DNA of 63,740 nucleotides, the filler included, from Craspedostauros australis (Eukaryota): assembly GCA_030167865.1 (NCBI GenBank). It is 4 parts of 4 records of this genome, joined end to end, with 100 filler letters (N's around TTAATTAATTAA, not from the genome) between each part and the next. Parts side by side here need not be neighbours in the genome. Positions count along the whole stretch, not along the records: positions 30,546 to 58,979 come from JALAGF010006418.1; 3 more parts are not named here. The stretch is one strand, 5' to 3'. Shown here in pieces: positions 28,063 through 63,740 of the stretch; positions within the stretch are counted from its first letter, which is position 1, and each line of letters begins with the position of its first letter. Position numbers and translations under genes: made by a program. The notes beneath the pieces were generated by a model. That model made no database searches, was not told where the DNA came from, and saw nothing but the letters and a program-made list of their open reading frames with translations.

Positions 28063-29441
28063 CGTGAAAATGAGCGTCAGCGCGTCAACCGAGGTTGCTA
28101 TATACGCTTGCTTCGCTGTCTCTCGTGTGTGAGGCTGAGTGCTGTATTCTATTTGTTGTCGCGTTGAATCGTCTGTGCAACTGATTAGAGGGAAGAGAAG
28201 AGGGGACGATAGTTTAGATTCTGAAATTATGAGTGCTAGCAATGGCATGAACAACATGTGGCACCTCGCGAGGTAGTTTGAAAGAGCAACGAGAAACATA
28301 TAGCAGTAGGTACAATACATACGGTGAAGACAGTTCCGAAAGGATGCTCGCACCCTCGGGCCCAGTCGACGTCATCAGAACTCACGTGTTCTGACGGATG
28401 CAGGTTCCTTGATTCCTTCCTTCTCCCCCTTGGTCGCACGCCCCAGATGCCTGTCCACGCCACAACTGCACTTGCACTTGCGTTGGGATTTGGATCCTTG
28501 GCTCGCGTTAACGTTGGAACAGGGTTGCGCGCGTCGAGAACTGAGGCACAGATCTCCATTTGGTCGCTGTTGGGCGATGAAAGCACCCATGGAAGTCTCA
28601 CGCACACATCCACAGACCATCAGAACCGTGCCCACCAGAGGATGTGAGTACAGACCTACTGGCCGAAACTCCAGTGGGCACTTGCCTGTGTACAGATGTG
28701 TGCTCGATGCTGATCATGCCGTAGCAGGAAGGAATCAAGCGAAACACCTTTCGAGAAGGTCAAGCGTATGCTGACCTACACATGCCATACCATCCATCCA
28801 GAGCAGTTGTTGCGCCAGTATGTACTTTCACGAACCATTGTGGTTGGAGATACTATGGAGTCTCCACAAGTATGATATGACCCGTGTGAGGCAATAGCGG
28901 TGCGGTCCCTCCAGGATTCTTTGATTTTGGACCTTCAATTCAGATGAAACTTGACTAATATACACTTCAACATACTTAGATTCATAATCCGAGATTGAAG
29001 CTCTATGGAAGCCTTATTTATAAAGTTATGAGATGATGAAGTTGGGCAGGCTACCTCTACGACCTGCGCCAAACCGTAAACTGGGTCACGATAACGCTAG
29101 TTGTAGTGCCTATCCGCTTTTTGTGTCGCCCCCATTTGGGGCCACAAGGGGCCACAAGGGGCTACAGGGTCGAAGTAGTTGAATCCTGGTACAACTCTAC
29201 GGAGCCGCTACAAGAGAAACAGCACCAACTTGCAAAAAACACCAACATCCGCACTCTTTTGCTTCGGATTAACATTCACTCAATCCTACCAACACCAAAC
29301 TTTACCAGCTATCTGTCCTGCATCTGNTGCATCCCTCCCCGAAGTTTGGTGTTCACATCTCTTCTCCTCGTTGAGTTCTGCCACATCCAATATCGTCGGG
29401 TCCAGTCACTGAAAACTGGTGGCATCGCTTCTTCCTGCCAA

Positions 29442-30445
29442 TCATCCCCCCTGCGGCGTTTCACTTCCTTTCCTGCATTGCATTGGCTNNNNNNNNNNNN
29501 NNNNNNNNNNNNNNNNNNNNNNNNNNNNNNNNNNNNNNNNNNNNNNNNNNNNNNNCATGGTGTCTGGGTGTGTGGAACTACGCGGCCTTGAACCTGCGTG
29601 TTTCTCTGCATGGATTTCGAAACATCGTCGAAATATTCCATCGTACTCCTTCATTTCGCAGCACCAAACAGTTTGGCCTGGAGATCCCATTCGACAGTTC
29701 AGGCAATGGTGCCTTGACGAGTTCATGCATACACAGCATCTGCCCCGTTTCCCTCTCGTCATGAACCTGGCGATCCCCTGCTTCGTATGGTCAATCTTCC
29801 CGTTCCGGACTCTACCTTGGTGCTTTACCAAGTGATGGCCATTGATCAAGTCTGCTTGGGGCCACTCGGTCACCTGTGTCGTCGCACGGGCCACCTGTGT
29901 TGTCACATGGGCCGGACTGTTGGTTGTCAACGAAGACAAGGAGCCACCATTGCCACCACATTGCACTTCCGATGGCTGGTCGCTTCTCATCCTGGCAAAT
30001 GAGCTTGGTGGATCAGGGGCTTCGTTGTTGTGGAGCATGTCNNNNNNNNNNNNNNNNNNNNNNNNNNNNNNNNNNNNNNNNNNNNNNNNNNNNNNNNNNN
30101 NNNNNNNNNNNNNNNNNNNNNNNNNNNNNNNNNNNNNNNNNNNNNNNNNNNNNNNNNNNNNNNNNNNNNNNNNNNNNNNNNNNNNNNNNNNNNNNNNNNN
30201 NNNNNNNAGGATGTCCTGTCGAGCCTGGTTGTGGACGTCGACCTTGTTGCAGCTTTCAAAGTACTTCGAAGCGACACTCGGCCGATCCACTTTCTTTGTC
30301 ATGGGGGACCCATCGTCCGAGATCCACTTCGACAAATACGGCGCCCCGCAGCCTGCATGCACAGCTCCCGCGGAAAAGACGAAGCAGAGTACCTTAGCCT
30401 TGCAGTACTTGTACCCCAGTGCGTAGTACTTGTGGCCGCCGCACT
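29442..30445 (-). mobile_element. piggyBac-superfamily transposase, C-terminal part (gapped, 5' end lost at scaffold spacer)
   Basis: YALGYKYCKAKVLCFVF...GAPY, RPSVASKYFESCNKVDVHNQARQ (third-Asp region of the piggyBac DDD core) and a C-terminal Cys-rich domain RGRCCVC...HHCLNC...WCC...RRCFEIH. Confidence 0.8.
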
Positions 30446-30545
30446 NNNNNNNNNNNNNNNNNNNNNNNNNNNNNNNNNNNNNNNNNNNNTTAATTAATTA
30501 ANNNNNNNNNNNNNNNNNNNNNNNNNNNNNNNNNNNNNNNNNNNN
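30446..30545. other. Artificial scaffold spacer N44-TTAATTAATTAA-N44
   Basis: Exactly 100 nt, all-frame-stop palindromic linker at 30490-30501. Confidence 0.95.
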
Positions 30546-32858
30546 GAGAAGAATCCACCTTGATGCTCCTCCCAATCCATCGCGATGGTGTACACAGAGC
30601 TGCTCACGGCTACCACCATGAACACAACAGCAAACGCCAACAGGCTGTAAGATTGCATCGTGGCCCATGTCGGTGACCAGATGGGAACTCGGAGGATCTT
30701 GCGATGGAAAATGGCTGGCAGCAGCAAAGCCAGTGGCACGCTTGTCAGGGCACCCGTGAATGAGACGAGATCCTTGAAGAAAGGGATGGCGTTGGCAACG
30801 AGGAAAGTGGAGGCGACCATTCCGCTGGTGAGGATGAGCCACCTTCGTCTGTCTGTTGCAGACTCGAACAACTTCATCTTGGACAGGAAGAGTCTGTCCA
30901 TGGAGGCGCAGATGGCTTGCGAGTTGATTGCGTAGGAGACGACGACGTGGATCCAGAGAAGGAATCCCGCCACTTTGCGGTTGAGACCTCGCGGGATGAC
31001 ATCGAAGAGAAATCCAGGTGGATCTGTTGTTATCGTCGTCGTCAAAGCATGGAATGATTTCAGTTTCGTTTGATCCAATTTCATTCGATTTGAGACAGTG
31101 TGAGATGTTCAACATCGGATGGGATTTGCAAGTTGACGAAGGCTGGTGAGGTCGATGCCGAGGATTGGTGAGTTTGCATCAGCATGCATCATCAACATGC
31201 ATGGCATCAGGTGATTCATCTCACCAGATCCAAGATCGAATACCCTGATCACGACTTCTGCCGCGCATATCAACCACATAGGGATATTGTCGCTGTTGCA
31301 ATCATGGAAAACCTCTGATGCAACCCACTCTTCAGCAATAACAAAACAAAAATCAGGTCCTCAAGGACCATCGCACCTCCCAAAGCCGGCCATGCTCTAG
31401 TACTTTCTGCGGTATGATCGTCTTGTGCCACTTACTGTCGCCTGCAGCCAGGACTGCTCCAATGTACGTGATGCACATCGACCCCAGCGCAAGCGCCAGC
31501 GATCTGGGAGCCTCCTTGCGATCCCTCATCTCGTGGCGAACGTTCAGAAACAGCTTCTGCGAGCCTACTGCAAACCCGACGCCGCCAAGTGCGGATGACT
31601 TTCGAAAGAATGCCTCTGTGATAGATGTGGCGGTATCTGACTCATCATTTTGATCTCTCATGTTCTGAGAGTCGAGCTCACCTGCTTGATACCTCAGAGC
31701 ATACACGCATTGCCCCACAACCACGAATAGTGCGGCCAGTGATAAGAGTGATACCGAACGGCCCAGTGACGCCATGGTTTTGAGCTGGGATGCTCCGAGC
31801 ATGAGGGTGGAAGCGACGAGACCGGCCGTCGGGATGCAAATGCGATCTTCGCCGATCATGGCAGCGACAGCGTGGCTCATGACGAGGATGTAGTCGCCCA
31901 TCACCAGAAATACGTTGACGTAGAACAGCAGCATGACCCATTGGGTGGCGCTGTTGTTGTGGAACAGAGCTGATGACATCCCGATGAAATCGAAGGTTGC
32001 TGTGTCATGGTGCAGCGGGTTGTTAGTTGCGGCATGTTGGTTTGGCTCCGAATCAGTTCCACCGACGTCATTCCCATCGTTGTCAGGGCTGCATGGCTGA
32101 ACGGAGCTGAGGTTTGCCTCCCGGATGTCATCAAGATTCAAGCTGCCTGCAATTTCTACCGATGTTTCTGGCTCATCTTCGAAAGCATCGGCTCCCTTGG
32201 CATTCTTCGGTGCCACTGGGTTGGCTGTACCAGTATCATTCAAACTGCCAACGTCGCCATTTTCGTTTTCAGGATCCATGTCAATGCCCAACCTGGTAAT
32301 GCTGTCAACATCGATGTGAGCAGTGTTGCAAGTGCTTGGCTGCTTTCCATTTTGATTGAGCCTTTCATGATTGTGATTGGCGTGGTCGTTGTCACTTTGA
32401 TCGCAATCGCAATCGCAATCGCAATCACCATCGACATCGATTTCGATTGCCCCAGCAGAAGTGAGATTCTCAACCCTCTGCCTTGCTTCTACTATGGTGG
32501 CAGTCTGTGCCAGAATGACCCCAGCGTAGTAATTGATCGGGAGGTTCAGAACCATGAAAGCCAAGCCAGGAAAGGTTCCCATCGAGTGAATTGTGGCGGG
32601 CAATGCCAGTATCCCCGTTCCCATGAATTCGGCGACCAACAGCGCTGCGCCCTGTACGCAAGTGAGGTCATTAGTTGATGCCTCGTGGTAGTTGCTTCTC
32701 ACTGAATAGTCGTCGTCATGGTTCTCAGCATTTGGGACGATCGAGAACTTCGTGCTGGCGGAAAGCGTTGCCATCCCCTCAGACGGAGCAAGCTGACGGG
32801 TTCCGGTGACGCCGCTGCCAACGCCAGAATCGCCCAAGTTGGTCGCCGTCATCTCCAT
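30546..32858 (-). CDS. Amino acid/auxin permease (AAAP, Aa_trans) paralog 1; exons 32858-31436 and 31023-30546 (last codons lost in gap)
   Basis: GAALLVAEFMGTGILALP; multiple TMs; intron 31435-31024 (GTAAGT...ACAG) joins AGD-NPPGFLFD; ANAIPFFKDLVSFTGALTSVPLALLLPAIF. Confidence 0.87.
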
Positions 32859-33868: not shown

Positions 33869-35789
33869 TTAGCTATGGCACGAGAAGAATCCACCTTGAT
33901 GCTCCTCCCAATCCATCGCGATGGTGTACACAGAGCTGCTCACGGCTACCACCATGAACACAACAGCAAACGCCAACAGGCTGTAAGATTGCATCGTGGC
34001 CCATGTCGGTGACCAGATGGGAACTCGGAGGATCTTGCGATGGAAAATGGCTGGCAGCAGCAAAGCCAGTGGCACGCTTGTCAGGGCACCCGTGAATGAG
34101 ACGAGATCCTTGAAGAAAGGGATGGCGTTGGCAACGAGGAAAGTGGAGGCGACCATTCCGCTGGTGAGGATGAGCCACCTTCGTCTGTCTGTTGCAGACT
34201 CGAACAACTTCATCTTGGACAGGAAGAGTCTGTCCATGGAGGCGCAGATGGCTTGCGAGTTGATTGCGTAGGAGACGACGACGTGGATCCAGAGAAGGAG
34301 TCCAGCCACTTTGCGGTTGAGACCTCGAGGGATGACATCGAAGAGAAATCCAGGTGGATCTGTTGTTATCGTCGTCATCGTCAACGTCGTGATCATGGTC
34401 GTCGCCATTGTTCGTTTGTGTAAGTTTGCGCGGGAGGCGCACATGGAGTTGAGGAAGCGGAGACATTTGAGATTGGTGAGTTTTGCGTCAATGCATTGCA
34501 CGTCCCTTGAGTGAATCGTATCCCAGAGCGCTTCATTCGTCTCTGGCACTCTCACTGCTATGTTGAATCAAGGATCACTTACTGTCACCGGCAACTAGGA
34601 CTGCTCCAATGTATGCAGCAGCCATCAGTACAAGCGAGAGGGCCAACGACAAGGGGGCTTCTTTGCGATCCTTCATTTCATGGCGGACGTTGAGGAACAG
34701 CTTCTGCGGAGTCACCGCAAAGCCGACTCCACCAAGCGCCGCTGACTTTCGGAAGAGCCTCGTGACGGCGGACTGCATGATTTCTGACTCGCCGTTTTCG
34801 TCCGACGGGTTCTGCGAATCGAGGTCATCGGCCTGGTATTGCAGCGCGTACACGCATTGCAGCACAACAATAAAAAGCGCGGCCAGCGAGACCACCGACA
34901 CGACGCGGCCCAGCGATGCCATGGTTCGGAGCTGGGACACTCCGAACATGAGGGTGGAAGCGATGAGACCGGCCGTCGGGATGCAAATGCGATCTTCGCC
35001 GATCATGGCAGCGACAGAGTGGCTCATGACGAGAATGTAGTCGCCCATCACCAGAAATATGTTGCCGTAGAACAGCAGCATGACCCATTGGGTGGCGCTG
35101 TTGTCGTGGAACAGAGCTGATGTCATCCCGATGAAATCAAAGGTTGCGGTGTCATGGTGCAGCAGCTGCTGCTGCAAGGCATTGCCATCTCCCTCATCCG
35201 TGCCAACGGGGGGACCCGATTGCAGCAACGAGCCGTAGCTTTCCTTGTGTGCTTCAGCAGCCAACATAGTGCTTGAGTGCTCCTCAGACAATTCAACTTC
35301 ATCCTCGAATGATTCGCCGCTCTTTTCTGCAGATGACATGGCTGTGATAGCCCTGTCTGGACCACGCGGACTGGTGCTGACATCAATCTTGATTGCCCCG
35401 GCAGACGCGAGGTTCTCAAGCTGCTGCCTTGCTTCCACGAAAACTGCAGCCTGCGACAGAAGCACCGCAGCGTAGTAGCTGACGAAGACGACGAAAACGA
35501 GGAATGCCATGCCGAATCCATCTCCCAAGGCGTAGACGGTGGCAGGCAATGCCAGTATGCCCGTTCCCATGCAGTCCGCGACCATCAGCACCGCACCTTG
35601 CACGTAGGTGAGATCGTTCGGCGATGCCTCGTGGTAGTTGCTACCCACAGAGTAGTCGTCATCATGTTTCTCGACATTTCGGAGGATGGAATACTTGGTA
35701 CTTTTGGAGAGCATCGTCATGCCGGCAGGCAGGGTGAGCACGCCTGAGGCAGGATGGCCGATAGCCGCTGGTGGTGTCTCCATGGTCAT
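33869..35789 (-). CDS. Amino acid/auxin permease (AAAP, Aa_trans) paralog 2; exons 35789-34583 and 34359-33869
   Basis: GAVLMVADCMGTGILALP; intron 34582-34360 at the same position and phase as in paralog 1; complete C-terminus (GGFFSCHS*). Confidence 0.88.
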
Positions 35790-36839
35790 TCTTCTGGTGA
35801 TGTTCCTTTTGTATGACTGATTGCAGGTGTTGGTCCCGGAAGTTGTTGTTCCAGTTGCTCTATTGGTAGAAAATGACGTTGTTATGCTTGTTGCTGTTGC
35901 TGCAGATACTTTTGTCAGTGCAGTGATTGTGATTCCGATGCTGATGCTAATGTCGATGATGATGACGACGACGACGATGCTGCTTTTGTGTTGACACCAA
36001 TCACGCGATTGCCTTGCGTTGGTGATTGAACTGCACAAGTACGTTATGTGTCTTGGCGATCGTCCCGTGTTGGCAACTGCGCGGATGACTGTACTGATCA
36101 TTCGTTGACACGAGACAAAAGATCGGCGAGGCAGCGATTCACGGCGTGTTCTGCTGTTGTCGCCGATCCATCTCCAGATGCCAGACACCTGTTGTGATGT
36201 CCATCAAAGATCAACGAAGACCACTGGAATGATTGGTGGAGGGAGCGAAGCAGCTTGTCCCTCATCTCTCTTCTCGGTGACCTCCCTGCGCAGCACAGCC
36301 ACACATCAGACCGCTGTCACGAAGAACAAATGAAATTCTCGGAACGCAACAGATGCCGACAACCATCGACAACTTCGACCCAAAGTCCGGAGTTTGCGCT
36401 GCCTCCCTCCGAATCGTGGATGCGAAAGTGAACCAACCCATCATCATCTGACTCACCACACGTCATCACAAAACCAGAACACCACCACATCGTCATCGAA
36501 CGAGCAACCGAAACCGAATCAATCGCGACAACGAACGATGAGCAAAAACATGGCAGACCGAAGAGGCAAAATGCGGCATCTGCGTGGCCAACGAGAACAA
36601 ACCAGCACAAGAATAGTGAAACGTGGCGAATCCGATTCGTTGCTCGTCTCTGATCCTTCACCTTTCGCCTTTCGTCTCTGCTCTCACGGCCATCGCAATC
36701 GCACTAATCGGTACCACACAGTTCCACACGACTGCTCATAGAATCGACCATTGCACCGAAGCAAAGCAAGCCGAGGAACTCGACGGCTTCAGCAAGGACG
36801 CTACTCAACAAACACGCTATTCTACACAAGCTTTTGACG

Positions 36840-39800
36840 ATGGTATCGCGGAAGAACCTCGCGCTGTTGGCCGTGTGCCTGCAGGCAACTCTCTCACCCT
36901 TCGCGGACGCATTCGTGCCGCCAATGCGACAGGCAGCATCGAGTACAACTACGAGTACGACCACGACCGCCACCAAAGCAATCCCGTCGCACGTATCCCT
37001 GGACGTCCAACTGCCATCATGGATCGTCGACGGAGGCAACTCGCTGCTCGATCAGGCGAAAACAGCCTCGTCGGCGATCGCGGCCGCATCTACCTCACCG
37101 GATGCCGCCGCGGGTCCCAATGCCGTGCAGACCCTCGTCACTAGCCTGCTATCCAACATCAACCTGCCGGACGGCGTGGATGCCAGCATCTTCAATGAGA
37201 AACTGGTCACAGCACTCTCCACCCCCTGGCATCTGGAGGCTGTCGCCGCGTTTACACTGGGCAGTTCGTTCCTCTGGTTCATCACGTCGCCGGACAACCA
37301 GAAGGACGCGCCTTACAAGCCGGGAACGACCACGTACGATCCCGAAGCCGCGGCCGAATTCTACTCAAAACGCCCGCTCTTGGTCGCCAAGCGCATCCTG
37401 CGACTTGCGTTCCTGACCGGCAAATTCAACACTGGCCTCATCTTCGACTGGCTGGTCCTGGGCAAGCTCTTCAAGGATGAAGAATACACCGCACTCAAAA
37501 AGGCCGAGCCACGTCGCGCGAAGGAGGCCTTGCGACTGTGCGAGCAACTGGGGCCCACCTTCATCAAGCTGGGACAGGCGCTCAGCATCCGTACGGATTT
37601 GATCCCGGAGGCGTACGCCTTGGAGCTCAGACAGCTGCAGGATGCCGTGCCGCCGTTCGACAGCGACGAAGCCTACGACGTTCTGAGAAGGGAGCTTGGT
37701 GTCAATGACCTCAACGAGGTCTTTACGTACCTTTCCGCCGAACCCGTGGCATCCGCATCCATTGGCCAGGTGTACCGTGGAACGCTGCGGGCCAACGGCA
37801 AGGACGTCGCCGTCAAGGTGCAACGTCCAGGCATCTTGGCAGAAATTGCGCTCGATCTGCATGTGCTGCGCGTCCTCACACCAATCCAAACCATCCTGCA
37901 GAATGCCGCAAACGGGGTCAAGACGTCGCAGGATGATATCGACACCGCCATTTCTCTCGTCGACGAATGGGGACGTGGATTCGTCGCCGAAACCGACTAC
38001 CGCCTCGAGGCGAAGAACACGAGGGACTTCGAGGCCGCCATGCGCAAGCGCGGTTTGGAGGCCGTCTGCGCGCCGCCGGTGGTCGACGAATACGTGAGAG
38101 ACGTCGTCCTGGTCACGGAATGGATCGAAGGAACGCGGTTGGATCGTGATGCGTCGCCGGATATTCCACGCCTTTGTGGTGTCGCCATCAATGCCTACCT
38201 CACCATGCTTCTGGACACAGGTGTTTTGCACTGCGATCCACACCCAGGTGCGTTCATTCATTTATCGCAGTACAACTCATGTTGATGTGCCAAACAGACG
38301 GCGTTGCACGACCATTGTTTGCTTTGACTTCAGCTTCTGTTCATCACTTGGCAGACACAAGCTCTGACACATGCACCAATGTGCTCATGATTTCGAATCA
38401 TCGACATTCCAACTCACACTTCATCCCTGTTGCACACATGCTCATCCGGATCAATCAACCAATCAATCAACACACATACTCCACGCAACAACACTGGTCA
38501 TTTCAGGCAACTTGTTGCGAACGACCGATGGCAAGCTCTGCATTTTGGACTGGGGCATGACGCTGGATGTCCCACCCAATCTTCAGTACGCCCTCCTGGA
38601 GCTGATTGCGCACATCAACTCCGAGAACTACGATGCTGTGCCACAGGACTTTATCAACCTGGGATTCTCCCCAGAGGGCGTCACAGCTGAGAAGTTGAAG
38701 GACAGCGGAATCACAGAGGGCCTCAGTTTCACCTTCCGCCAGCTCAGCGCAGGTGGTGGACCAAAGAAGATCCAGGAACGTGTCAAGGCGGAATTCCAGG
38801 AACGCTACGGATCTGACTTGTCCGACAAGGAACTGCAGGAGGCAGCCAGAGCGGAGATGATGCAACGCATGGAGCAGCAGCTGGAGTCCGAGGGCGTTGA
38901 CGTCAAGGGCGTCACAAATGTGATGGAGGAAATCTCTAGACGCAACAGAGAGCTCTTCCAGCTGCCACCGTACGTGCTGTACGTCGCAAGAGCATTCTCG
39001 ACCTTGGAGGGCATCGGCCTCAGCATCGACGAGAACTACGCCATCGTTCAGGAATGCTACCCGTATCTTTCACGCCGACTCTTCACGGATCGCAGCCCAC
39101 GTGCCAAGAGGGCTCTGCGCGCCATGCTTGGTCTGGCGGAGGATCCTGAGGAAGAGGACATGCAGGTGCACGCAGCATCCACGCCAAGCTCCCTCGCCAT
39201 CGTCCAAGCCGGTGCAAATGGAGAAGATGCACCCAAGAGCAACGCCATCCGGCCAAAGAAGCTGCTGGAGATGTCGGAGGGCTTTGCTTCATACACTGCC
39301 GCCACGGCCACCGTGGACCGTGACGGTGTCGGGCAAACAGCAGCCGCACAAGAGTTCGCCAAGCTGCTCCTGGATCCAAAGGGATCTACATTGCAGGACA
39401 TTCTTGTCGAGGAGACTGCCAGGCTCGGTGACGCGGCCACACGCGCCGCCCTCAAGGCATCCCTGGTCGAAAGCCCAGCTGCCAAGGTGGCGGCAAATGC
39501 TCTGCGCGTGCGCAAGGAATTGTTCGACCAATCGCCACTGTCCGGAATCCTGCCAAAATCCCTCAAGGCTGCGCTTGTGGACCGTCCCGCCGAGTTGCCT
39601 CAGCTTATTGAATCCGCGCTGGCCACAAGCGCCAACGATGAACGCATCCTCGACACAGCCACGGAGCTCAGGGAGGTTGTCACATCGCGTCTCTCATCCA
39701 CATCTTCATCTGACGGAGACGACAGCCATGACGCGACACCCGGCCTCACAAGTCAACCAAATATCGATCTAACATCTCTGTCATCAGCGTTGTCGGATGA

Positions 39801-40020
39801 CGAGACTCGCCAGCTTCTGGCCGAGCAGCTTCCTGGCGTTGCTACCCTCGGTCGTCGTGTCGGTGCTGGATTGCTGCGACGGGCAGCGTACCGGGCGGAG
39901 CAGACCTCGGAGCTTCCAGAGGACGCAAGAAAGGCGATCGCAGATGCAAACAAGTCTCTTGCCGATGTTTTGGATGTCAAAGAGGGATCTGAAAAGGCTG
40001 CCACGAAGGTGGAAACGTAG
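36840..40020 (+). CDS. ABC1/UbiB/ADCK atypical kinase, plastid-targeted; exons 36840-38247 and 38507-40020
   Basis: LGPTFIKLGQALSIRTDL, LQDAVPPF, VASASIGQVY, VAVKVQRP, LHCDPHP|GNLL across a phase-1 intron, LDWGM, FQLPPY; signal peptide ending ADA-FVP. Confidence 0.93.
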
Positions 40021-43798: not shown

Positions 43799-44235
43799 AG
43801 CCGCGTCACTTTCTTCTGAAGGGAGCACCGATTGACGAGGAGATAGAGGCAAAGGTGCTCGTGCGCAAGTGCGACTGTCGAGTGGAGCAGCCAGTTGCCG
43901 GTGAACTGTACGACTACGCATGCTCCTCTCCTCTATTCCACTCTGGAGGTTTGTGTTCGCAATAGTCGAAGTGGTCGAATAAGCCAAGAACGACTGACAG
44001 AGATTTTCTCTGATGGATGATTGGGAGTTACGGTAATAGCACATATGTCGACAAATATTGCACGGCACCTGGTAGACTTGGAAGCAATGCAGACAGGTTC
44101 AACACAAATCATTTCTGGATCATCAGGGCAGTCTCAATCTCGATCTCAATGTCTCCGCTCCATTCTTCTCGATTAGTACTCCTCGGAAAGTTTGCAGGTG
44201 GCACTTGTTTGTTTGTTTGTCTGTTTTGTTACTCT

Positions 44236-47200
44236 CTAGTTGCTGGCATTGTCGTACTTGGCCAACTGACTCCGGGCATGCATCAGGCGGCTGGATTCGG
44301 TGCGGACGCTGTCGGGCACGGCCAAAGGCGCAGGCTGGTTCGCGTTGTGCGATGCGGTTGCCTCATCCGTCTTGTCTGTGTCTTCGTCGGATGTTGTTGC
44401 TGTTGGTGGTGTTGCTGGGGCAAGCCGTCTTCTAATCGGCGGTGCGGACTCCAGCTTGTCGGCCGTGAGCTTGAGCAGCTTCGTGGCGAATCGACTTCCA
44501 GTCATAACCAGACCGAGCCGTCTGTCCCAGAACTTCTGCGCCAAGATCGTGGACAACTGTAGCAGATCGTTGGGTTGGAGTTCGGACAGATCCACGGTCT
44601 GCCCATTGGCTGCGGCCTGCTTTTGCAGCAGATCGACCAACCGTCTCGTCGTTTCGACGGTCTTGTGGTCAAGTTCGCTCATCTCCACCAACGACGACTG
44701 TCGGAAGAGACCGAGCGGATCCACGATGGTTCCCAACACTGTGCGACCTCCTGGCAACGTTCCAGAATTCTGACGCACGCCCGACCACACGGACCGCGAT
44801 GCGGATGTGGCGATCTTAGCAAGCTGCTCCAGCAGGATGTCCTGTACCGGCGACTCCTCCTCAGTGAACACAATATCCAGCAGGTAATCAGCGGCGGTTT
44901 CAAGGGTCTGCACGGCAGTGACATTCTGTTGTCCCAGCATGGCACCGGACGCCGAAGTCGTGTAGTTGCCAAAGCCGGTGACGAGCTGTTCGACTCGGTC
45001 GATATCGACAATGCGTGTGTCGACATTGGATTTGTCTGGGCCGAAAATGAAGGTCGACAGGGCTGGTCCCATCTGCGACTTGTCCGTCAACAAACGCTTG
45101 GACACGTATGGCAAGCATTCGTTAATGATGCTGTACTTGTCGTCGTTGGACAGTCCGATGCCCTCCAACACGGAGAATGACTTGGCAATGTACGCACTGT
45201 GCGGGCGACAAATAATAAGTCGTAGAGTCGCCATTGAGATCAATGATTGGCAAAATATGGAGCAAATAGCACAGGTGGTGAGAAAAGAGAAGGAATCGAG
45301 GCTGAACAGAACAGAGCAGAGCGACGAGCGCAGCGATCGTGACATGCGACGCAAGCGACGTGCCGCATGGATTTGCGATTGTACTTACACTGGAGGAATG
45401 AGGAAGATTGGATGCAGTTGGCGAAAGTGGAATGAAAGGAAGGAGAAAGTATGCATGTTGATGGGTGAGCGAGTCGAATCAGAAGGAATCAATCAATCAA
45501 TCAATCAAACAAACAAACAAACAAACAAACAAACAAACAAACAAACAAACAAACAAACAAACGCGAGCGATGGTACCAAAAAGAAAACGAACATGGGCAC
45601 CATGCAAGCATGCATGCACACTTACAGTAGGGTGGGATTTGGAACAGATTTCCTTTCTCAGCCGTCAGATCCTGCAGCTGGGAGATGACCTTGTTGACGT
45701 TGATGGCGGCAACGCCACCACCCGTGCTCCAGGCACCGTAAATGTCGGCCAAGAGCTCGACGACGCCGCTGTCCTCGATCAGGTCCGCCTTGTCCTTCGG
45801 GATGAAGCCGAGCAGCAGAAGATCCCTGGGAATCTCGGCGTAATCGGCGGATGTGAGATGTGCCATATGCTCAATGAGGGTGAGCTGCAGATTGGAGTCG
45901 AGACGCGTGACCATGCCCCAATCCAAGACGCACAGTTTGCCCTCCGTAGTGCGCAGCAGGTTGCCGGGGTGAGGATCGCAATGCAGCAATCCAATTTCGA
46001 GCATCATCGTGAGGTAGGTGTTCATGGCGATGCTGCAGAGGACGGTGATGTCTTCGTTGCTGCTCTTATCGAGACGCTCACCGTCGACCCATTCCGTGAC
46101 GAGTACCTTGCCGGTCGACAGCTCCTCGACGACATCGGGTGCCAGCACGACATCCTTCAACGGTGTCTCCTGGATCTTCTCCATGAAATCCTGCGCGTTC
46201 TTGGCTTCCTGCAAATAGTCCAATTCATCCACGAATCCTGATCCCCACGCATCGACCGTTCCGGTGGTGTCGGTGTTGAGATTGAAGGTGTTCTTGGCGA
46301 TGGGTGCAAATTCCCGCAGCAGGTGCATGTCGAGGGCGACCTGGTTCATGATGTTGGGACGCTGCACCTTGATGGCGATCTCGCGCCCGTCCATCATGGT
46401 GGCCTTGTAGACCTGTCCCAAGGAGGCAGCGGCGACTGGTTCGTCGGAGATGGTCTTGAGGACCGAATCCACGGAGCGACCGCCCCATTCCTTCTGCAGG
46501 ATTTCACGTCCGATGTCGGAATCGAACGCCTTGACCTGATCCTGCAAGCTGGACAGTCCGCGCACGTAAGCTGGGCTGAGCAGGTCTGTTCGGATCGAAA
46601 GCGATTGGCCGACTGTGATGTACAAGTGTGATTCAGATGGACAGTGATGAGAATGAAGTCGAGAAAGTGGGTGATGTTCGATGAATGGATGTATGGCATT
46701 GTGGGACGACAAAATGTGAGGGACATGTCTCTTGGAAACGTCTTTGTGTCATGCAAGGGGGGTTGAAACTGAACATCAGGAAACATCAGTGGTATGTGCT
46801 TGCACAACATTACTGAACCGCAATCTCGCAACATGATCAACAAGGCAGAAACACTCGAATTGCATTGCATCGTATCACGACGTACTCTTGATAAAGGTTG
46901 GCCCCAACTTCGTGAGTAGCTCCGCCAACTGGAATGCACGCTTCTCCTCGTTGACCGCAATTTCATCCTTGAGCTTGTCCTGCAGCAGCGACAGACCGAA
47001 CCTGGCCGATTGCAGGGCAATGCCGATGCTGCGTGCCAGCACTTCCCCCACCCTCGGCTTGAAGTACAGACGCGCCGATTCCGGATCGTAGCGATTGGTG
47101 GGATACGGTCGCAGAGGTGTTTCCTCATTGTCACCGCCCGATGCCACCACGACGATCGAAAAGGCGACAACGGAAGAGGTGAGCAGCAGCACGGCCGGAT

Positions 47201-47687
47201 CGATGCCCGCCGAAGTGATCGCCGCCGAGATGGATTCCACGAGATTGGCATACTGCACTTCGAAGCCCGGATAGTTGGCCTTGAGGTACTGATCGAACTG
47301 AGACGAAACAGCCGTTACCAGTTCATTGGCCACGTCCACAAGTTCGGCTGTCTCCAGCAGCGATTGCACGAGCTGCAGCATCATCGCAAGTTTGGTCTGA
47401 AGGAACGTGGAGACGATGTCGTTGATGGCATGCACGACGTTGGACAGCTGCATCACGGCCACATCCTTCGATGCGATGGCATCTGCGACGGAAAGTCCCA
47501 ATGCGGATGCGCTGTTTTGTGATTGTGAGGGTGATGTGGTCAAGACCGAAGGCCCGACATTCCTTGCCGGGATGCTATTGGTGCCATGTCTTGGAACCAC
47601 GAAGGCGCTGCACGATGTCGACGATGGCGCAGCCGACTGCTGGAAGGCCAGCAGCAGGAATGCCGCTTGCGGAATCGATAGCTTCAT
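44236..47687 (-). CDS. ABC1/UbiB atypical kinase, plastid-targeted; exons 47687-46886, 46612-45626, 45389 (1 nt), 45196-44236
   Basis: LGPTFIK|IGQSLSIRTDL, VAAASLGQVY, IAIKVQRP, ELDY, LHCDPHPGNLL, LDWGM, FQIPPY-F-AYIAKSFSVLEGIG; CSA-FVV plastid motif. All introns are GT-AG. Confidence 0.9.
45487..45562. repeat. Compound (AATC)n(AAAC)n microsatellite inside the ABC1 kinase intron
   Basis: Directly visible; reads (GTTT)n(GATT)n on the transcribed strand. Confidence 0.9.
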
Positions 47688-48794: not shown

Positions 48795-51356
48795 ATGAAG
48801 ACGAGTTGGAGAAGGCAGAGGCGTTCCTCGATGATGACCATGACGATGACGTCGCTGCTGGTCATGCTGGGTGTTGGCATGATGGCAATGAGCAAGATCC
48901 CTGCCGCCAGCGCCCAGACACCCAGCGACCCTCCTGTGTCAATCGCCAAGTTCGTGGAAGACACGGAGCAGCTCTCCACGCTCCGCACGATGCTGCAGGG
49001 ATTGGGCATCTCGCCCAGCGATGCGCAGACCCTGCTCGCGCTCAACAACGCCGCCTTCGACAGGTGGAAGACCAGCGATCCGATTATGTACCATCGCTAC
49101 AGCAAGGACGCCTTCTTCATCCACAGGCGCCTTCTCATGCTGTGGCACTTCGTGGACGAGGACGTCCTCACGCAGGATCAGATCTTCGACGGCGCCAGGA
49201 CCAAGCTGCAGAACATGGTGGGCGAAATCAACGTGCGCCCGGTGCAGCAGACGCTGGACGGCGTGCCGAGAGCGGCCATGGTTGCCACCAACAGGGCCAT
49301 GACGGACGGCATGGTGCACGTCCTGAACCAGATCATCATCCCTCCCATGCTGCATCTGCCCATGCTCGACCGCATGTTCCGCGACTTCTCGGACAAGTTC
49401 TCCTTCAACGTCATGGCTAACATCGCCCTCTTTGCCGGCCTCAAGGAGGAGCTCAACAAGATCTACGAGGACGGCCTCACCTTCCTCGTGCCACCCAATC
49501 GCCGTTTCAATCGTGCCGAAATCGATGTGCCCACCTTGCTGCACGAGGACTCCAAGGACTACACCCGCGCCTTCGTCCTGTGTCACATGCTGCCTGGCAA
49601 TCAATTCTTCGACACCGTCAAGGCGCGTCACGCGGCCAAGAACACGGAGCAGGACTTCATTGTCACCATGCTCGGCACCCACATATGGATCACCACGACG
49701 GATGAGAAGTTCCGATTCCAATCCAGCGAAGTGCTGCTGCAGGATCAGGTGACTAAGAATGGGTGAGTCGTTGGGAATGCACTCATCTTGTGTGTGGATG
49801 CACCCATATGAATTATATTGCGCTGCTGGGTCTCATGCAACCGCTACCTTTCCTGTGTGCGTGATATGGTCGGTGCTAACGGCATTACCTTGGAGTGCTG
49901 TTGCTCACGCAATGCGTGGTAAATGCTTTGGGCCTCCTACAGACGTTCGTTTTTGGAGAGCGTTCCTACTGATCATCGTTTTCATGCTATTGACAATCAT
50001 CCTTCGTCATCTCACCTTCGCACAAATCTCCGTCCTCAAATGCCATCTTCGCGCATCTGCGATCATAACACACATGTCATTTCGTACGCAGAGTGTTCCA
50101 TGGATTGGACATGCCGCTGGCACCGCCCAAAGCATCCGACTTTGCTAACTTCATGCGTGTCTCCACGTCGTGGGATACCGAACCCTGCAACAGAATGTTC
50201 GTCGCCTCCGCGTGGACCTCTGAAACCTTCGCGCAGTTGGCCAACGACACCGTCAGCGTGTTCTGCCCGGATGACGCTGCATTTGCCGCCTTCGACCGCG
50301 CCGTGTACGACCGTCTCATCGAGCCAGAGTGGCAGCGTCACTTGAGAGATTTCCTGTCCCACCACATCAGCTCCCCAGCCATGACCATCGCCGACTACTA
50401 CGCCGAGGCTCCAGGCAACATCACCATGTTGAGCGGTGAGACGTACCAGCTCAAACGCAAGGGCACATCCCCCAGGATTGACAAATCGGTGATCCAATTT
50501 GGTGACATGATCTCCACGGACGGGTAAGTTTGGTCTCAGACGAATCAGACGCAATCTCCGGAGTGTGGCGCCTGCTCTGTTCTGCTGGTGCCATCTATGG
50601 TATGCTGCGACCTGTCGTGCGCAACGACTGGCTGACACCAAAGGCAGCAACCAGCGATGTCTGAACTCGCGAGTGTCCTGATCATGCACACACACACATC
50701 AACGGCAAACAAACAAGCAAGCAAGCAAACAAACAGTAGCTCACAATTCCTTTGCTTTCTTCGCTCCCATCACACACCCTACCACTACTCGCACCACGCA
50801 TGCATCCGATTGGATCTGAACCGACCTGATCAACACCAACAGGTACTTCCACATCATCGACAAGGTCCTGGAACCTCCGTCAGTTTCACGAACGCTCTAC
50901 GACCACTGCAAAGAATCAAACCGCACCTACAGCGGCCTCACGCTATTCGCGACGACCGTGGATTACGTGCGCTTGACAGATCTCATCGACCGCGATCTTC
51001 CACTCACGGGCTTCATCCCGTACAACCGAGCATTCCGTCGAATCTCCTACCCAGCACCGAAGGCAAGAGGCATCGTCGAGCAGCACGTCATTCGTGGACT
51101 CTACTACATCGATGTTGTGGCGAAGAGCACAATACTCACGCCGCTGGAAGGTTTCGACATGGGCGTTGAAGTCAAGTACGACAACGTCACAATGGAGGAG
51201 AGCGTCTGGGTTGGAGGGGCGAAGATCATCCAGGAGGAAGTCTACACACGAAACGGCGTGATGCATGTCATCGATAGGGTGATTGGGTTTGACTACGAGA
51301 CCTCCCCACCCACCGTATCCCCGGCGCCAACAATGACGGCCCAGCCAACCGCGTAG
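48795..51356 (+). CDS. Secreted multi-fasciclin (FAS1) domain protein; exons 48795-49762, 50092-50523, 50843-51356
   Basis: Signal peptide; repeated FAS1 H1/H2 motifs (TLLALNNAAF / DGMVHVLNQII; TFLVPPNRRF / NG|VFHGLD; SVFCPDDAAF / DG|YFHIIDKVL; TGFIPYNRAF / NGVMHVIDRVI); two phase-2 GT-AG introns; Pro/Thr-rich tail. Confidence 0.87.
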
Positions 51357-58979: not shown

Positions 58980-59079
58980 NNNNNNNNNNNNNNNNNNNNN
59001 NNNNNNNNNNNNNNNNNNNNNNNTTAATTAATTAANNNNNNNNNNNNNNNNNNNNNNNNNNNNNNNNNNNNNNNNNNNN
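58980..59079. other. Artificial scaffold spacer N44-TTAATTAATTAA-N44
   Basis: Linker at 59024-59035; 100 nt in total. Confidence 0.95.
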
Positions 59080-62052
59080 CAAAAAATGAAACAATTCGTC
59101 AAGATCGTCTTGGAAAAACTAATACATATTTTGACTTAATAACTATAAACGTCTCTAACGAAAAACTACATAATCAATAAAAACACTCACATACGACCTA
59201 TCAATATAAAATATAACCATACTTATATTAAATATAACATATATTATCACCCAAATCACCCTCATTANCATTAAAAAAAANATTAATTCCCTTAAAACAG
59301 TCGATTGAATAAAATGCTCTCATGTCTAATTTAGATAATTATATAGATACATTAAAGCAATTTTATGCTACTATATCCTTTTATGAATTCGTCAAATTTG
59401 AGTACTAAATACATTATTTGAACCTTGAAGACTTTGAATCCGTCGATTTTACTTGTTTGTAACCTTAGTTCGTAACACGAGTCTTCCGCCTAAAAAATCT
59501 CTAAAGTTCTTTAAATTTACAGAATGCCATCAACTCAAATTTATTTTAAAATCGGACCAAATGATTAAAATCAACTAACGATTCTTCTAATTTAATAACA
59601 AATTAACCCTAAAAAATTTTATCGCTGTCATTCCAATAATCACATCTATCCTTCATGCATTATTTCAACTACAATCTCATACGAAACTTAATAGTAACAC
59701 CTTTTTTATCAAAATTCACACAAAATCGAATAAAAAGACATATCAAAGACCTTTACCTAAAATATAACATTTTTAGTCATATTTGCCCGCGTACGATCTT
59801 AAGTTTTAAATCATTCTTAAATAATAAAAAAAAATTAAATTTCTATTTCACAAAGAATGAAACAATTCGTCAAGATCATTTTAGAAAAGCTAATACATAT
59901 TTTAACTTAATAACTATAAACGTCTCTAACTAAAACCTACATAATCGATAAAAACACTCACATACAACCTATCAATATAAAATATAACTATACTTATATT
60001 GAATATAACATGTATTATCACCTAAATCATCCTCATTAACATTTTCACTAATTCCCTTAAAATAGTCGATTGAATAGAATGCTCCCATATCTAATTTGTA
60101 TGTTTATATAAACCCATTAGAGCGATTTTATACTGCAATATCGTTTTATAAATTCATCAAATTTAAGTGCTAAGTACATTGTTTAAACCTTGAAGACTTT
60201 TAATCCGCCCATTTTACTTGTTTGTAACCCTCGTCCGCGCCATAAGTCTCCCGTCCAAAAAATCCTTAAACTTTTTTAGACTTGCAAAATGCCATCAACC
60301 CGAATTTATTCTAAAATCGGACTAAATGATTAAAATCAACTAGCAATTCTTCTAATTTAATAATAAATTAACTCTAGAAAATTTTATCGCCGCCATTCCA
60401 ATAATCACATCTATCCTTTATGCTTGATTTCAACTACAATTTCATACAAAACTTGATAGTGACACCTTTTTTTATCAAAATTCATACAAAATCTAATAAG
60501 AAGACATATCAAAAATCCTTAACTAAAATAGAATATTTTTAATCACATTTGCCTGCGTATGATCTTGAGTTTTAAATCATTTCTAAACAATACAAAAAAA
60601 GTTAAACTTTTGTTTCACAAAAAATGAAACAATTCTGTATACATTAAAAAAAACATTAAATCTTAAAAATCACTCATAAATGTATTAAATTTACTAAAAT
60701 CTATATGGTACACTTACGTGAATCAAANNNNNNNNNNNNNNNNNNNNNNNNNNNNNNNNNNNNNNNNNNNNNNNNNNAGATCTATATGATACACTTATGT
60801 AAATCAAATACGTGCATAATAACTCAAAACACGGCATAATACTTTTAGTTACATTTGCCCGTGTGCGATCTTAAGTTTTAAACCATTGCTAAATAATAAA
60901 AAAGATTAAATTTCTATTTCACAAAAAATGAAACAATTCGTCAAGATCGTCTTGGAAAAACTAATACATATTTCAACTTAATAACTATAAACGTCTCTAA
61001 CTAAAACCTACATAATCAATAAAAACACTAACATACAACCTATTAATATAAAATATAACTATACCTATATTAAATATAACATGTATTATCACCCAAATCA
61101 TCCCCATTAACATTTTCACTAATTCCCTTAAAATAGTCGATTGAATAAAATGCTCTCATGTCTAATTTGTATGTTTATATAAACCCATTAAAGCGATTTT
61201 ATACTGCAATATCGTTTTATAAACTCATCAAATTTAAGTGATAAGTACATTGTTTAAACCTTGAAGACTTTGGATCAGCCCATTTTACTTGTTTGTAACC
61301 CTCGTCCGCGCCACAAGTCTCCCGTCTAAAAAATCCTTAAACTTTTTTAAACTTGCAAAATGCCATCAACCCGAATTTATTCTAAAATCGGACTAAATGA
61401 TTAAAATCAACTAGCAATTCTTCTAATTTAATAATAAATTAACTCTAGAAAATTTTATCGCCGCCATTCCAATAATCACGTCTATCCTTCATGCTTGATT
61501 TCAACTACAATTTCATACAAGACTTGATAGTGACACCTTTTTTATCAAAATTCATACAAAATCTAATAAGAAGACATATCAAAAATCCTTAACTAAGATA
61601 GAATACTTTTAATCACATTTGCCTGCGTGTGATCTTGAGTTTTAAATCATTTCTAAACAATACGAAAAAGGTTAAATTTTTGTTTCACAAAAAATGAAAC
61701 AATTCGTCAAGATCATCTTGGAAAAACTAATACGTATTTTAACTTAATAACAATAAACGTCTCTAACGAAAAATCACATAATCAATAAAAACACTCACAT
61801 ACGGCCTAGCAATATAAAGTATAACTATACTTATATTAAATATAACATATATTATCACCCAAATCACCCTCATTAACATTAAAATTTTCACTAATTCCTT
61901 TAAAACAATCGATTGAATAGAATGCTCCCATTTCTAATTTGTATGTTTATATAGATACATTAAAGCAATTCTATACCACTATATCCTTTTATGAATTCGT
62001 CAAATTTGAGTGCTAAGTACATTATTTAAACCTTGAAGGCTTTGAATCCGTC
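59080..62052. repeat. AT-rich tandem satellite, monomer ~766-771 bp, two variant types
   Basis: Landmark ATGAAACAATTC at 59086, 59857, 60624, 60928 and 61694; monomers align over their length; far lower GC than the genic DNA. Confidence 0.92.
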
Positions 62053-62152
62053 NNNNNNNNNNNNNNNNNNNNNNNNNNNNNNNNNNNNNNNNNNNNTTAA
62101 TTAATTAANNNNNNNNNNNNNNNNNNNNNNNNNNNNNNNNNNNNNNNNNNNN
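62053..62152. other. Artificial scaffold spacer N44-TTAATTAATTAA-N44
   Basis: Linker at 62097-62108; 100 nt in total. Confidence 0.95.
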
Positions 62153-63740
62153 TGGAACCAGTATCCCGGCGCCGACGGCCTCACGGACTCGATGGAATGA
62201 GATGGCCACATGCTTCTTTTGCAGCAGGCTGTCTGCAATGGTCGTGTTCGAGATTACCGCATTGTTGTCACAGAATGTGACCGTGGGTGATTTGATGCGT
62301 ACTCCCAGCGATCGGAGCGCGTATCGTAGTGCAATGATTTCCTCCGTCACTGATCGCATAGCGTTGAATTCCGCGCCGTACGTTGACGTGGTAACCGATG
62401 TTTGCCTCTTGCTNGTGAAGTACACAGGGGTCCTGCCAAGGAATAGTATGATCCCAGTGTTGGATCGCCGTGTGACGAGATTGTGTGCGTGGTCCGCATC
62501 GACGAATGCATACATAGGCAGTTCTGGGTAAATCGGCTTGGGCGATCGGTCGTCGATGTCCTCCGCTGCCTCAGGATACTCTTCTTTCATTTGCGCCACC
62601 AACTCTGGGTTGGAAGGCGTCGAGTTGAAGTTGTCGAGTATCATGGGCCTGGAGTCGACTTGTGTTGTGAGTGTGGACTTTCCTTTGAGGTAGCCCCAGA
62701 TCTTGAGCGCTCGCACAAGATGTCCTTTTCGTGGTGATGCAGTGAATCAAGAAAGTGAAGAAGTTGCAAAGGCGACGTCGAAACGTCCAAGTTGAACAAC
62801 CCAGTTCAGCATGCCGATCAGCTGCTGGAACTGNNNNNNNNNNNNNNNNNNNNNNNNNNNNNNNNNNNNNNNNNNNNNNNNNNNNNNNNNNNNNNNNNNN
62901 NNNNNNNNNNNNNNNNAGCTTGCCATGTTGTCGCTCGACTTTGTCCAGCGCGTTGGCGATGTACTTGTTGCATCCGACGCTCCATTTGCCCTTGGCATTC
63001 TTGGAGTAGTCGTTGCCCAGATAGTATTTGGGTGGTCCAATGTCTTTGATCGTGTAGACTTGTTGGATGGACTTCATGTATTGATCGGGATCCTTGGCCA
63101 CGATCTTGAAGTCGTTGACATGCGTGCAGATGTAATCGTAGCCAGTGTCGTCTCTGATCTTGATCCATACATCTTGGTTGTGACGTGATGGGGAGAACCC
63201 CATGGATGAGAGTGTGTTCGCGAAGTGAGCGTGGAATCGTTGTGCACTCGATCTGAGTCCATACAGCGCCTTCTTGAGTACGATTGTTTGGCCCTCACGG
63301 TGGTCGAATTCCTTTCCGGCTCTCGCGTAGATTTTCTCGTTGGTGTATGCGTTGACGAATGCATTGCCCACATCGCCACATAATTGCTTCAGCTTGTTGG
63401 CGTCCGCGATGACGTCGAGTATCCAAACACTGGTGGACTTCACTGTGGACAAGTATACTCTGATGTTGTCAGCGAGTTCGATGAGATGACCTCCGGCGAC
63501 CAGACGCCCCTTGCGTCGCAGATCTTGTTTGACTGCGAAGATTAGCCGTAGCTTTGTGCTCTGGTAGTCCGAGGAAGGTTGATGAGTGGATGGGTGAAAT
63601 TCGAAGCAGTCGAGCTCGATGAGAGCATCGATCTCCTTCTTGGCTGCGTCGTGCCAAAGTGTATCTCCATTCGCTTCGTCGAGTTGGAGTGCGTGCTTCA
63701 TGTTGCATGGCACTTCCACTCCGTACTGGAACATGGTGGC
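62153..63740 (-). mobile_element. Ty1/copia (CoDi-like) LTR retrotransposon pol remnant: RT + RNase H, inactivated
   Basis: FQYGVEVP, KGRLVAGGH, GDVGNAFVNA, LKKALYGLRSS, HVND (in place of Y/HVDD), YYLGND; RNase H FVDADHA...TRRSNTG, SKRQ...STYGAEF, FCDN, KKHVAISFHRVRE; in-frame TGA at 62749-62747. Confidence 0.93.

Follow-up and report, generated by a model that had tools for sequence, protein, structure and literature searches.

The DNA analyzed here is a stretch of 63,740 nucleotides (nt), filler between its four parts included, from the diatom Craspedostauros australis (GenBank assembly GCA_030167865.1), hereafter the window, in which positions 30,546 to 58,979 derive from JALAGF010006418.1. 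On the minus strand, between positions 44236 and 47687, lies a gene whose product is an ABC1/UbiB-type atypical kinase with a predicted presequence of the diatom plastid type, and we propose that one of its exons probably consists of a single nucleotide, the T at 45389. Exon 1 (46886..47687) begins at the first ATG (47687) and encodes the N-terminus MKLSIPQAAFLLLAFQQSAAPSSTSCSAF/VVP, in which, as read by eye from the sequence, a hydrophobic signal-like peptide leads to an SAF/V junction of the kind found in diatom plastid presequences; it ends with LGPTFIK plus an A, in phase 1, and tblastn alignments of orthologues reach 46887. Intron 1 (46613..46885, 273 nt) runs from A/GTACGT to CACAG/TC, and the orthologues read LGPTFIK-[IV]-GQSLSIR over it. 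Exon 2 (45626..46612) contains the ABC1 kinase domain, which matches Pfam PF03109 with an E value of 7.8e-58 (195.9 bits against a gathering cut-off of 22.9), shares 74-83% identity with the 12 best-scoring orthologues, and ends with FQIPPY plus a T, again in phase 1. The last exon (44236..45196), at most 72% identical to relatives among the matches listed, opens with a T that would serve as the third base of a Phe codon and continues as AYIAKSFSVLEGIG through 319 codons to the stop at 44236-44238. A scripted splice model that includes the one-nucleotide exon gives a coding sequence of 2751 nt and a product of 916 amino acids (aa), which is colinear with orthologues of 895-942 aa. One orthologue (P0097, 72% identical) is labelled by its source as 'OF BC1 COMPLEX KINASE 3, chloroplastic'. 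A paralog of the kinase gene lies at 36708-40020, ~5 kb away.

The proposal arises from the anatomy of the junction between exon 2 and the last exon. When 44000-46800 is read on the minus strand, exon 2 ends with CAA ATC CCA CCC TAC T, where the final T at 45626 is followed by GTAAGT, and the last exon, which comes after CGCCCGCACAG, opens with T 45196 and continues GCG TAC ATT GCC. In stop-to-stop reading frames the upstream open reading frame (ORF), with FQIPPY, leaves one spare base while the downstream ORF needs two before GCG, so that the flanking exons have incompatible phases (phase 1 at 45626 versus phase 2 at 45196) and joining them directly shifts the frame. In the scripted model the product of a direct join stops after 632 aa instead of 916. 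Between the two edges the minus strand reads CTTCCTCATTCCTCCAG, a single T at 45389, and GTAAGTAC. Use of this T as an exon would divide the interval of 429 nt into a putative intron A (45390..45625, 236 nt), which runs from GTAAGT to a pyrimidine tract (14 of 15 positions) plus CAG, has no interior AG, and carries a (GTTT)n(GATT)n repeat, and a putative intron B (45197..45388, 192 nt), which runs from GTAAGT to CACAG and has one interior AG. The T would be the middle base of a codon T+T+T = TTT, supplying the Phe that is invariant in the orthologues, and this is the sole model that restores PPY-F-AYIAK. The initial annotation had described just this arrangement, and its three positions (45626, 45389, and 45196) and two intron lengths prove correct to the base. 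It was also right that direct joining shifts the frame, that the paralog is uninterrupted across the motif, where it reads FQLPPYVLYVARAFSTLEGIG, and that both introns are of a size typical for the window, in which independently anchored introns measure 78, 223, 259, 273, and 412 nt.

Comparison with relatives defines what is missing at the junction. In tblastn alignments of four orthologues, the Tyr falls on the TAC at 45629-45627 and the Ala on the GCG at 45195-45193, with one orthologue residue between them. For longer proteins, a search with exon 2 scored 8000 candidates, of which 3207 had E values ≤1e-30, and the best 120 were examined. The best of these was 83% identical, and a PPY-F-AYIAK-type pattern with Phe was present in 118. 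The two misses, P0052 and P0086, merely end early, right after PPYFA and PPYFAYIAKSFSV, respectively, so that the single residue Phe occurs in 120/120, and the alignment to orthologues that the initial annotation had suggested for PPYFAY thus finds PPYF in every one of them. A search with the last exon returned 311 matches, and among the best 120 (top identity 72%), 113 are continuous across the site with Phe, one begins downstream of the site, and six diverge right before YFAYIAK. A metagenome scan seeded solely with exon 2 peptides gave 54 loci of at most 78% identity, and all 48 that reach the site are continuous in DNA (47 of the PPYF type and L053 with PPSF), the other six ending earlier. 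By these comparisons exactly one Phe codon is missing, and T+T+T would restore it. The three sets may share contigs or origin and are not independent. The Phe codon is TTT in 29 and TTC in 19 of 48 relatives, and the predicted junction TACTTTGCG is identical in six relatives. PDB sequence matches to the orthologue P0003 stop at residue 536, ~50 residues short of the junction, and are therefore uninformative on the Phe.

The local habits of splicing were taken from five other introns of the window that are anchored by homology or by Pfam, noisy calls from adjacent ORFs having been discarded. These controls are intron 1 of the kinase gene (46885-46613, minus strand, GTACGT, 273 nt), anchored by the orthologue alignment; the intron of the paralog (38248-38506, GTGCGT, 259 nt), across which a conserved motif can be read; one intron in each of two amino-acid transporter paralogs on the minus strand (34360-34582, GTAAGT, 223 nt, and 31024-31435, GTAAGT, 412 nt), which both break at the same AGDSK, the acceptor of the latter being placed by its likeness to that of the former; and an intron of a 5'-nucleotidase gene (23162-23085, GTAAGT, 78 nt), where the donor interrupts the Pfam profile at position 241 and the following exon takes it up again. 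Every one of these five donors matches GTRNGT, and the acceptor is CAG in each case. The GTAAGT hexamer is rare: counting both strands, the window has 12 copies where base composition predicts 25.3; two of the 12 sit within the 429-nt interval on the coding strand, and three of the other ten are anchored donors (34582, 31435, and 23162, by paralog or Pfam continuity). The five control introns and intron A are in phase 1 throughout (46885, 45625, 38248, 34582, 31435, and 23162), although this is a small sample. The tandem Aa_trans paralogs share their intron at the same AGDSK codon with A/GTAAGT donors and near-identical acceptor contexts (CGACGATAACAACAG), and differ in its length (412 versus 223 nt).

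Against this background the internal site stands out. The strict motif YYYYYNCAGNGTAAGT occurs once in the window versus 0.01 expected, and a match was obtained in 1/100 shuffles. With lenient criteria, which ask for no better signals than those of the weakest control intron (a YAG, then any base, then GTRNGT, and at least 5 of 15 pyrimidines), there are four sites, including that of T 45389, in 127,480 strand positions, corresponding to a chance expectation of ~0.01 per 429 nt, which halves when only a base completing a Phe codon is accepted. Apart from T 45389, the YAG-N-GTRNGT sites of the window are at 13969 (plus strand), 42013 (minus), and 50781 (minus), and the first of these three, CGCGCAG T GTGAGT, is inside an ORF without a Pfam match. 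With 14/15, the pyrimidine tract of the internal acceptor surpasses that of each of the five control acceptors (5 to 12 of 15). Interior AG dinucleotides are depleted in both putative introns: intron A has none versus 5.5 expected (P 0.0036, 5000 shuffles), so that the first AG met downstream of the donor is that of the CAG at 45390, and intron B has one versus 6.2 expected (P 0.011). Since the AG-free zone before the control acceptors spans 80-146 nt, with the exception of 25 nt in the 78-nt intron, the pattern agrees with both proposed acceptors, and by itself it is also compatible with a single long intron.

The canonical ways of splicing across the junction were enumerated. When every GT or GC donor within 45560-45660 was paired with every AG acceptor within 45150-45260, 11 canonical single-intron joins were in frame, and none of them (0/11) leaves one residue between PPY and AYIAK. 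For the GTAAGT donor at 45625, which has 374 open codons upstream and is in phase 1, there is within 560 nt no YAG acceptor that both keeps the frame and leads into 60 or more open codons. Allowing two introns and one internal exon of 1-60 nt gave 52 in-frame, stop-free models, and only one of them, which combines the one-nucleotide exon at 45389 with acceptor 45197, restored the orthologue sequence; this model also scored the highest of four in alignments to three orthologues. Non-canonical boundaries (GT..CA or TA..AG) were rejected, as they would in addition give TGT (Cys) and not Phe. The single-intron join that comes closest pairs the donor GTGTGC (45616..45621, minus strand, 4 nt downstream of the GTAAGT) with the in-frame acceptor at 45197, giving one intron of 425 nt and a product of 917 aa with PPY-CN-AYIAK, in which case the internal CAG/T/GTAAGT would be coincidental. 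This product is in frame and full-length and scores no more than ~19 points below that of the one-nucleotide model in global alignments, the join is the only canonical single-intron one near orthologue length, and it is the model that a gene finder would pick. However, it swaps a Phe that is invariant in 120/120, 113/120, and 48/48 of the sequences in the sets above, and lengthens the protein by a residue at a place free of indels in every sampled sequence. It must also skip a perfect GTAAGT only 4 nt upstream for a donor that does not match the GTRNGT of all five anchored donors, and it leaves a unique internal site to chance at ~0.01 or less, so that we consider it improbable.

An error of assembly or sequencing, by which a T was lost at an exon edge (TAC TT/GTAAGT or CAG/TT GCG), would also explain the clash of phases, as one 429-nt intron would then suffice and the internal site would be coincidental. 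A single-base indel would account for the mismatch, and the window does have gaps, in the form of 14 runs of N within 29327-30545 and 58980-62916, in its repeat-rich parts. The nearest of these is more than 13 kb from the junction, however, and we read their varying lengths (1 to 166 nt) as a sign that paired short reads were used for scaffolding. Each of the two large exons aligns to orthologues in a single unbroken stretch, the supposed deletion is not in a homopolymer run, and 13 long ORFs of the window sum to 23.4 kb, a tally in which frame breaks between ORFs elsewhere are not systematically excluded. An acceptor, a T, and a perfect donor would once more have to coincide inside the intron at ~0.01 or less, and a one-base deletion in the assembly appears to us slightly less probable even than the GTGTGC donor. 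We give no greater weight than this to the gene being a recently disabled allele or pseudogene, in which 45626 is spliced directly to 45196, the frame shifts, the product ends after 632 aa, and the paralog or other ABC1 kinases cover its function. The direct join is the simplest splice, there is a paralog 5 kb away, and the structure is not found in relatives, but each of the three large exons has an open frame and shares 72-83% identity with orthologues, and the 2.75 kb of coding sequence show no further damage; the paralog shares only ~30-44% identity with the query orthologues and is hence not a redundant copy, and here too the internal site would be a coincidence. Least probable of all is that the one-nucleotide exon is used but intron B ends at, or alternates with, the CAG at 45302..45304 (its only interior AG, preceded by CTGTTCTGTT), which has a good pyrimidine tract, would define an intron of 87 nt (one of 78 nt is known at 23162), and is in frame without a stop, since the 35 residues inserted after the Phe would break up the region's best-conserved motif, in which the listed orthologues carry no insertion, and since AG-free zones of at least 80 nt suit the acceptor at 45197 (105 nt) as well as that at 45302.

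The one-nucleotide exon is therefore favored by its colinearity with orthologues, by the exhaustive enumeration of models, by the uniqueness and quality of the internal site, and by the splicing habits of the window, and we consider it likely, from these features of the genomic sequence, that the T at 45389 completes a Phe codon split T/T/T over three exons. Several points weigh on the other side. No transcript was found for this organism, nor any protein more than 83% identical among the matches listed, and one-base exons are extremely rare a priori. In-frame alternatives exist, either without the micro-exon (donor 45621) or with a changed product (acceptor 45302). Both donors have a T at position -1, where the five control donors have A or G. 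The structure is without counterpart in any sampled relative, unlike the plant and Fusarium cases discussed below, such that conservation cannot back it, and the chance estimates are post hoc, the site having been noticed before it was tested. Of what the initial annotation had claimed, the anatomy and the phases are confirmed, the restoration of Phe by a one-nucleotide exon is the best explanation, sequential splicing is a reasonable mechanistic proposal, and an extension concerning regulation, which is considered below, finds no support.

Based on these features we put forward a mechanism for the splicing of the junction. The single T would be flanked by two ordinary U2-type GT-AG introns, each of the form GTAAGT ... 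CAG. The U1 site of donor B would overlap the AG and the end of the pyrimidine tract of intron A, and because it spans acceptor A, both introns could not be recognized and committed at once. We propose that introns A and B are instead removed one after the other, by intron definition. If intron A is removed first, exon 2 plus the T would adjoin GTAAGT and a normal second step would follow; if intron B is removed first, the resulting CAG/TT GCG would present a normal acceptor for intron A; and either order would yield TAC TTT GCG. Inclusion of the T would be constitutive. The site would thus act much like a recursive splice site but with one base kept. Recursive splice sites are zero-length exons of very long animal introns and leave no base behind. 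The present site resembles them in that a pyrimidine tract and CAG adjoin a GTAAGT donor, implying stepwise removal, and differs in that one base is retained and the segments are of only 236 and 192 nt. A true recursive splice site, with an exon of zero nt, is ruled out, since the T between the AG and the GT must stay to keep the frame, and a stwintron is ruled out as both introns carry complete GTAAGT and CAG signals before any splicing. Within 45100-45720 there was no match to Rfam families, and the 429-nt interval showed no unusual folding (z -0.23).

The initial annotation had further suggested that regulated inclusion or skipping of the T serves as an on/off switch for the kinase, which is an extension of the one-nucleotide exon rather than an alternative to it. 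Skipping would indeed give a premature stop (632 versus 916 aa), and plant VPS55 has isoforms with and without its one-nucleotide exon (PMC8831610). The strong consensus sites, however, look built for efficient constitutive use, as is reported for APC11 (PMC4674806), and we found nothing in support of a switch, which we rate about as low as an error in the assembly.

The published spliceosomal one-nucleotide exons that we found are those of APC11 and VPS55 in plants and CYP621A in Fusarium. The exon of Arabidopsis thaliana APC11, which the initial annotation had correctly named as a known case, has been demonstrated with cDNA sequencing, resequencing, and mutated minigenes (Guo and Liu 2015, PMC4674806). 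As in the kinase gene, it is a single base between two GT-AG introns, annotated there as one intron of ~420 nt, that keeps the frame and was missed by gene models; unlike the T at 45389, which is absent from sampled relatives and is predicted from sequence, the APC11 exon is an A and is conserved across land plants (PMC8831610). The VPS55 and conserved APC11 microexons of plants have GTRAGT donors (Yu et al. 2022, PMC8831610), and the strongly conserved GTRAGT that follows the VPS55 exon is matched here by GTAAGT at both donors, although the VPS55 exon is both conserved and ancient, and intron retention distinguishes its isoforms (PMC8831610). Reads had to be compared with explicit junction sequences in that study, as exons of one nucleotide are misplaced by standard aligners. 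The exon of Fusarium CYP621A was predicted in 2009 from an argument on phases and was later confirmed by reads from the Sequence Read Archive (SRA); its authors describe it as the second instance to be reported in a gene (Nelson and Syed 2026, PMC12940212). The parallels with CYP621A are close, as both cases have a phase-1/phase-2 clash, an intronless homologue that reveals one missing base, and an internal AG-N-GT that supplies the mid-codon base of an invariant motif, but the CYP621A exon is a G, is confirmed by reads, and is conserved in 20-24 orthologues, and the exon proposed here is a T in one genome. The cox1 gene of placozoan mitochondria also has an exon one base long, but the gene is organellar, its introns are not spliceosomal, and trans-splicing is involved, so that other machinery is at work (PMC5436844). 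Searches on one-nucleotide exons and on diatom microexons, which did not cover subscription journals and supplements, found no diatom example in the literature. The kinase exon is probably a new case of a known and very rare kind, and one of very few such exons.

The distribution of the two introns bears on their origin. No intron was found at this Phe codon in the sampled relatives (48/48 metagenome loci and 113/120 of the best 120 of 311 proteins), and because it is absent from all of these, the pair of introns A and B is probably a recent gain specific to this lineage. The protein P0005 (81% identical) has an in-frame stretch of 55 residues exactly between LGPTFIK and VGQSLSIR, at the site of intron 1; it reads through this site and is therefore derived from genomic DNA, and it is continuous at PPYF despite keeping intron 1. 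P0001, an ORF of 895 residues on a 31.6-kb contig, is likewise continuous at PPYF. Intron 1 itself is common to the kinase gene and its close relative P0005, and P0001 is without it. How the pair arose can be narrowed to some extent. Tandem duplication of one intron was rejected, as A and B are identical in 76/237 aligned columns and share blocks only in their first six and last three bases. In blastn comparisons of introns A and B with the window and the 54 loci, only microsatellite matches were found, with no sign of an introner or repeat origin, a comparison too small in scope, with its one 64-kb window, to speak against a genome-wide family. Introners are reported in the diatom Thalassiosira oceanica (PMC12130899), and an introner route for introns A and B is therefore possible. 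For Fusarium it was proposed that a one-base deletion was rescued by a cryptic AG-N-GT (PMC12940212), and such an origin seems unlikely here because a near-perfect site would have to pre-exist.

The motif may, moreover, have received introns more than once. Six ORF-type orthologues (P0201, P0202, P0221, P0230, P0234, and P0236) diverge or start right before YFAYIAK, the residue in front of it being K in one of them and Q in the other five. In P0201, FQIPP and YFAYIAK are separated by 31 unrelated codons that begin with V and end with Q, and P0236 is identical over 301 residues to P0089, an NCBI model from Discostella pseudostelligera. These sequences point to a phase-0 intron that separates PP from Y in Thalassiosirales-type diatoms and lies 4 nt upstream of the donor of intron A, and because of this neighboring intron we suggest that introns may have been gained repeatedly in the motif. 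The (GTTT)n(GATT)n microsatellite of intron A spans ~45489-45563 on the minus strand, and related tetranucleotide repeats occur at 44205-44226 (the 3' flank of the kinase gene), 50706-50735, and 38450-38470 (within the paralog intron). Elsewhere in the window, its end (62574-63740, minus strand) holds a fragment of a copia-type reverse transcriptase (RVT_2, E 1.5e-14).

In its fullest form our proposal is that the kinase gene of C. australis contains a constitutive one-base exon, which would be the first outside plants and fungi, and which was born recently through two lineage-specific introns within one Phe codon and is spliced in an obligatorily ordered, recursive-like manner under intron definition; taken as a whole, we hold this fuller account to have a somewhat better than even chance of being correct. 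The consequence for annotation is a practical one, in that automatic models would truncate the kinase or put PPY-CN-AY into an invariant motif, and the phase-1/phase-2 signature can be searched for across diatom genomes. Because the exons of APC11, VPS55, and CYP621A are all conserved, they say little about how such exons originate. If the proposal is true, it would extend one-nucleotide exons to the stramenopiles and would mean that a spliceosome working with short introns by intron definition is able to join a single base between two of them, and, as relatives that are ~80% identical lack the structure, the kinase gene would provide a young instance in which the birth of an exon can be studied.

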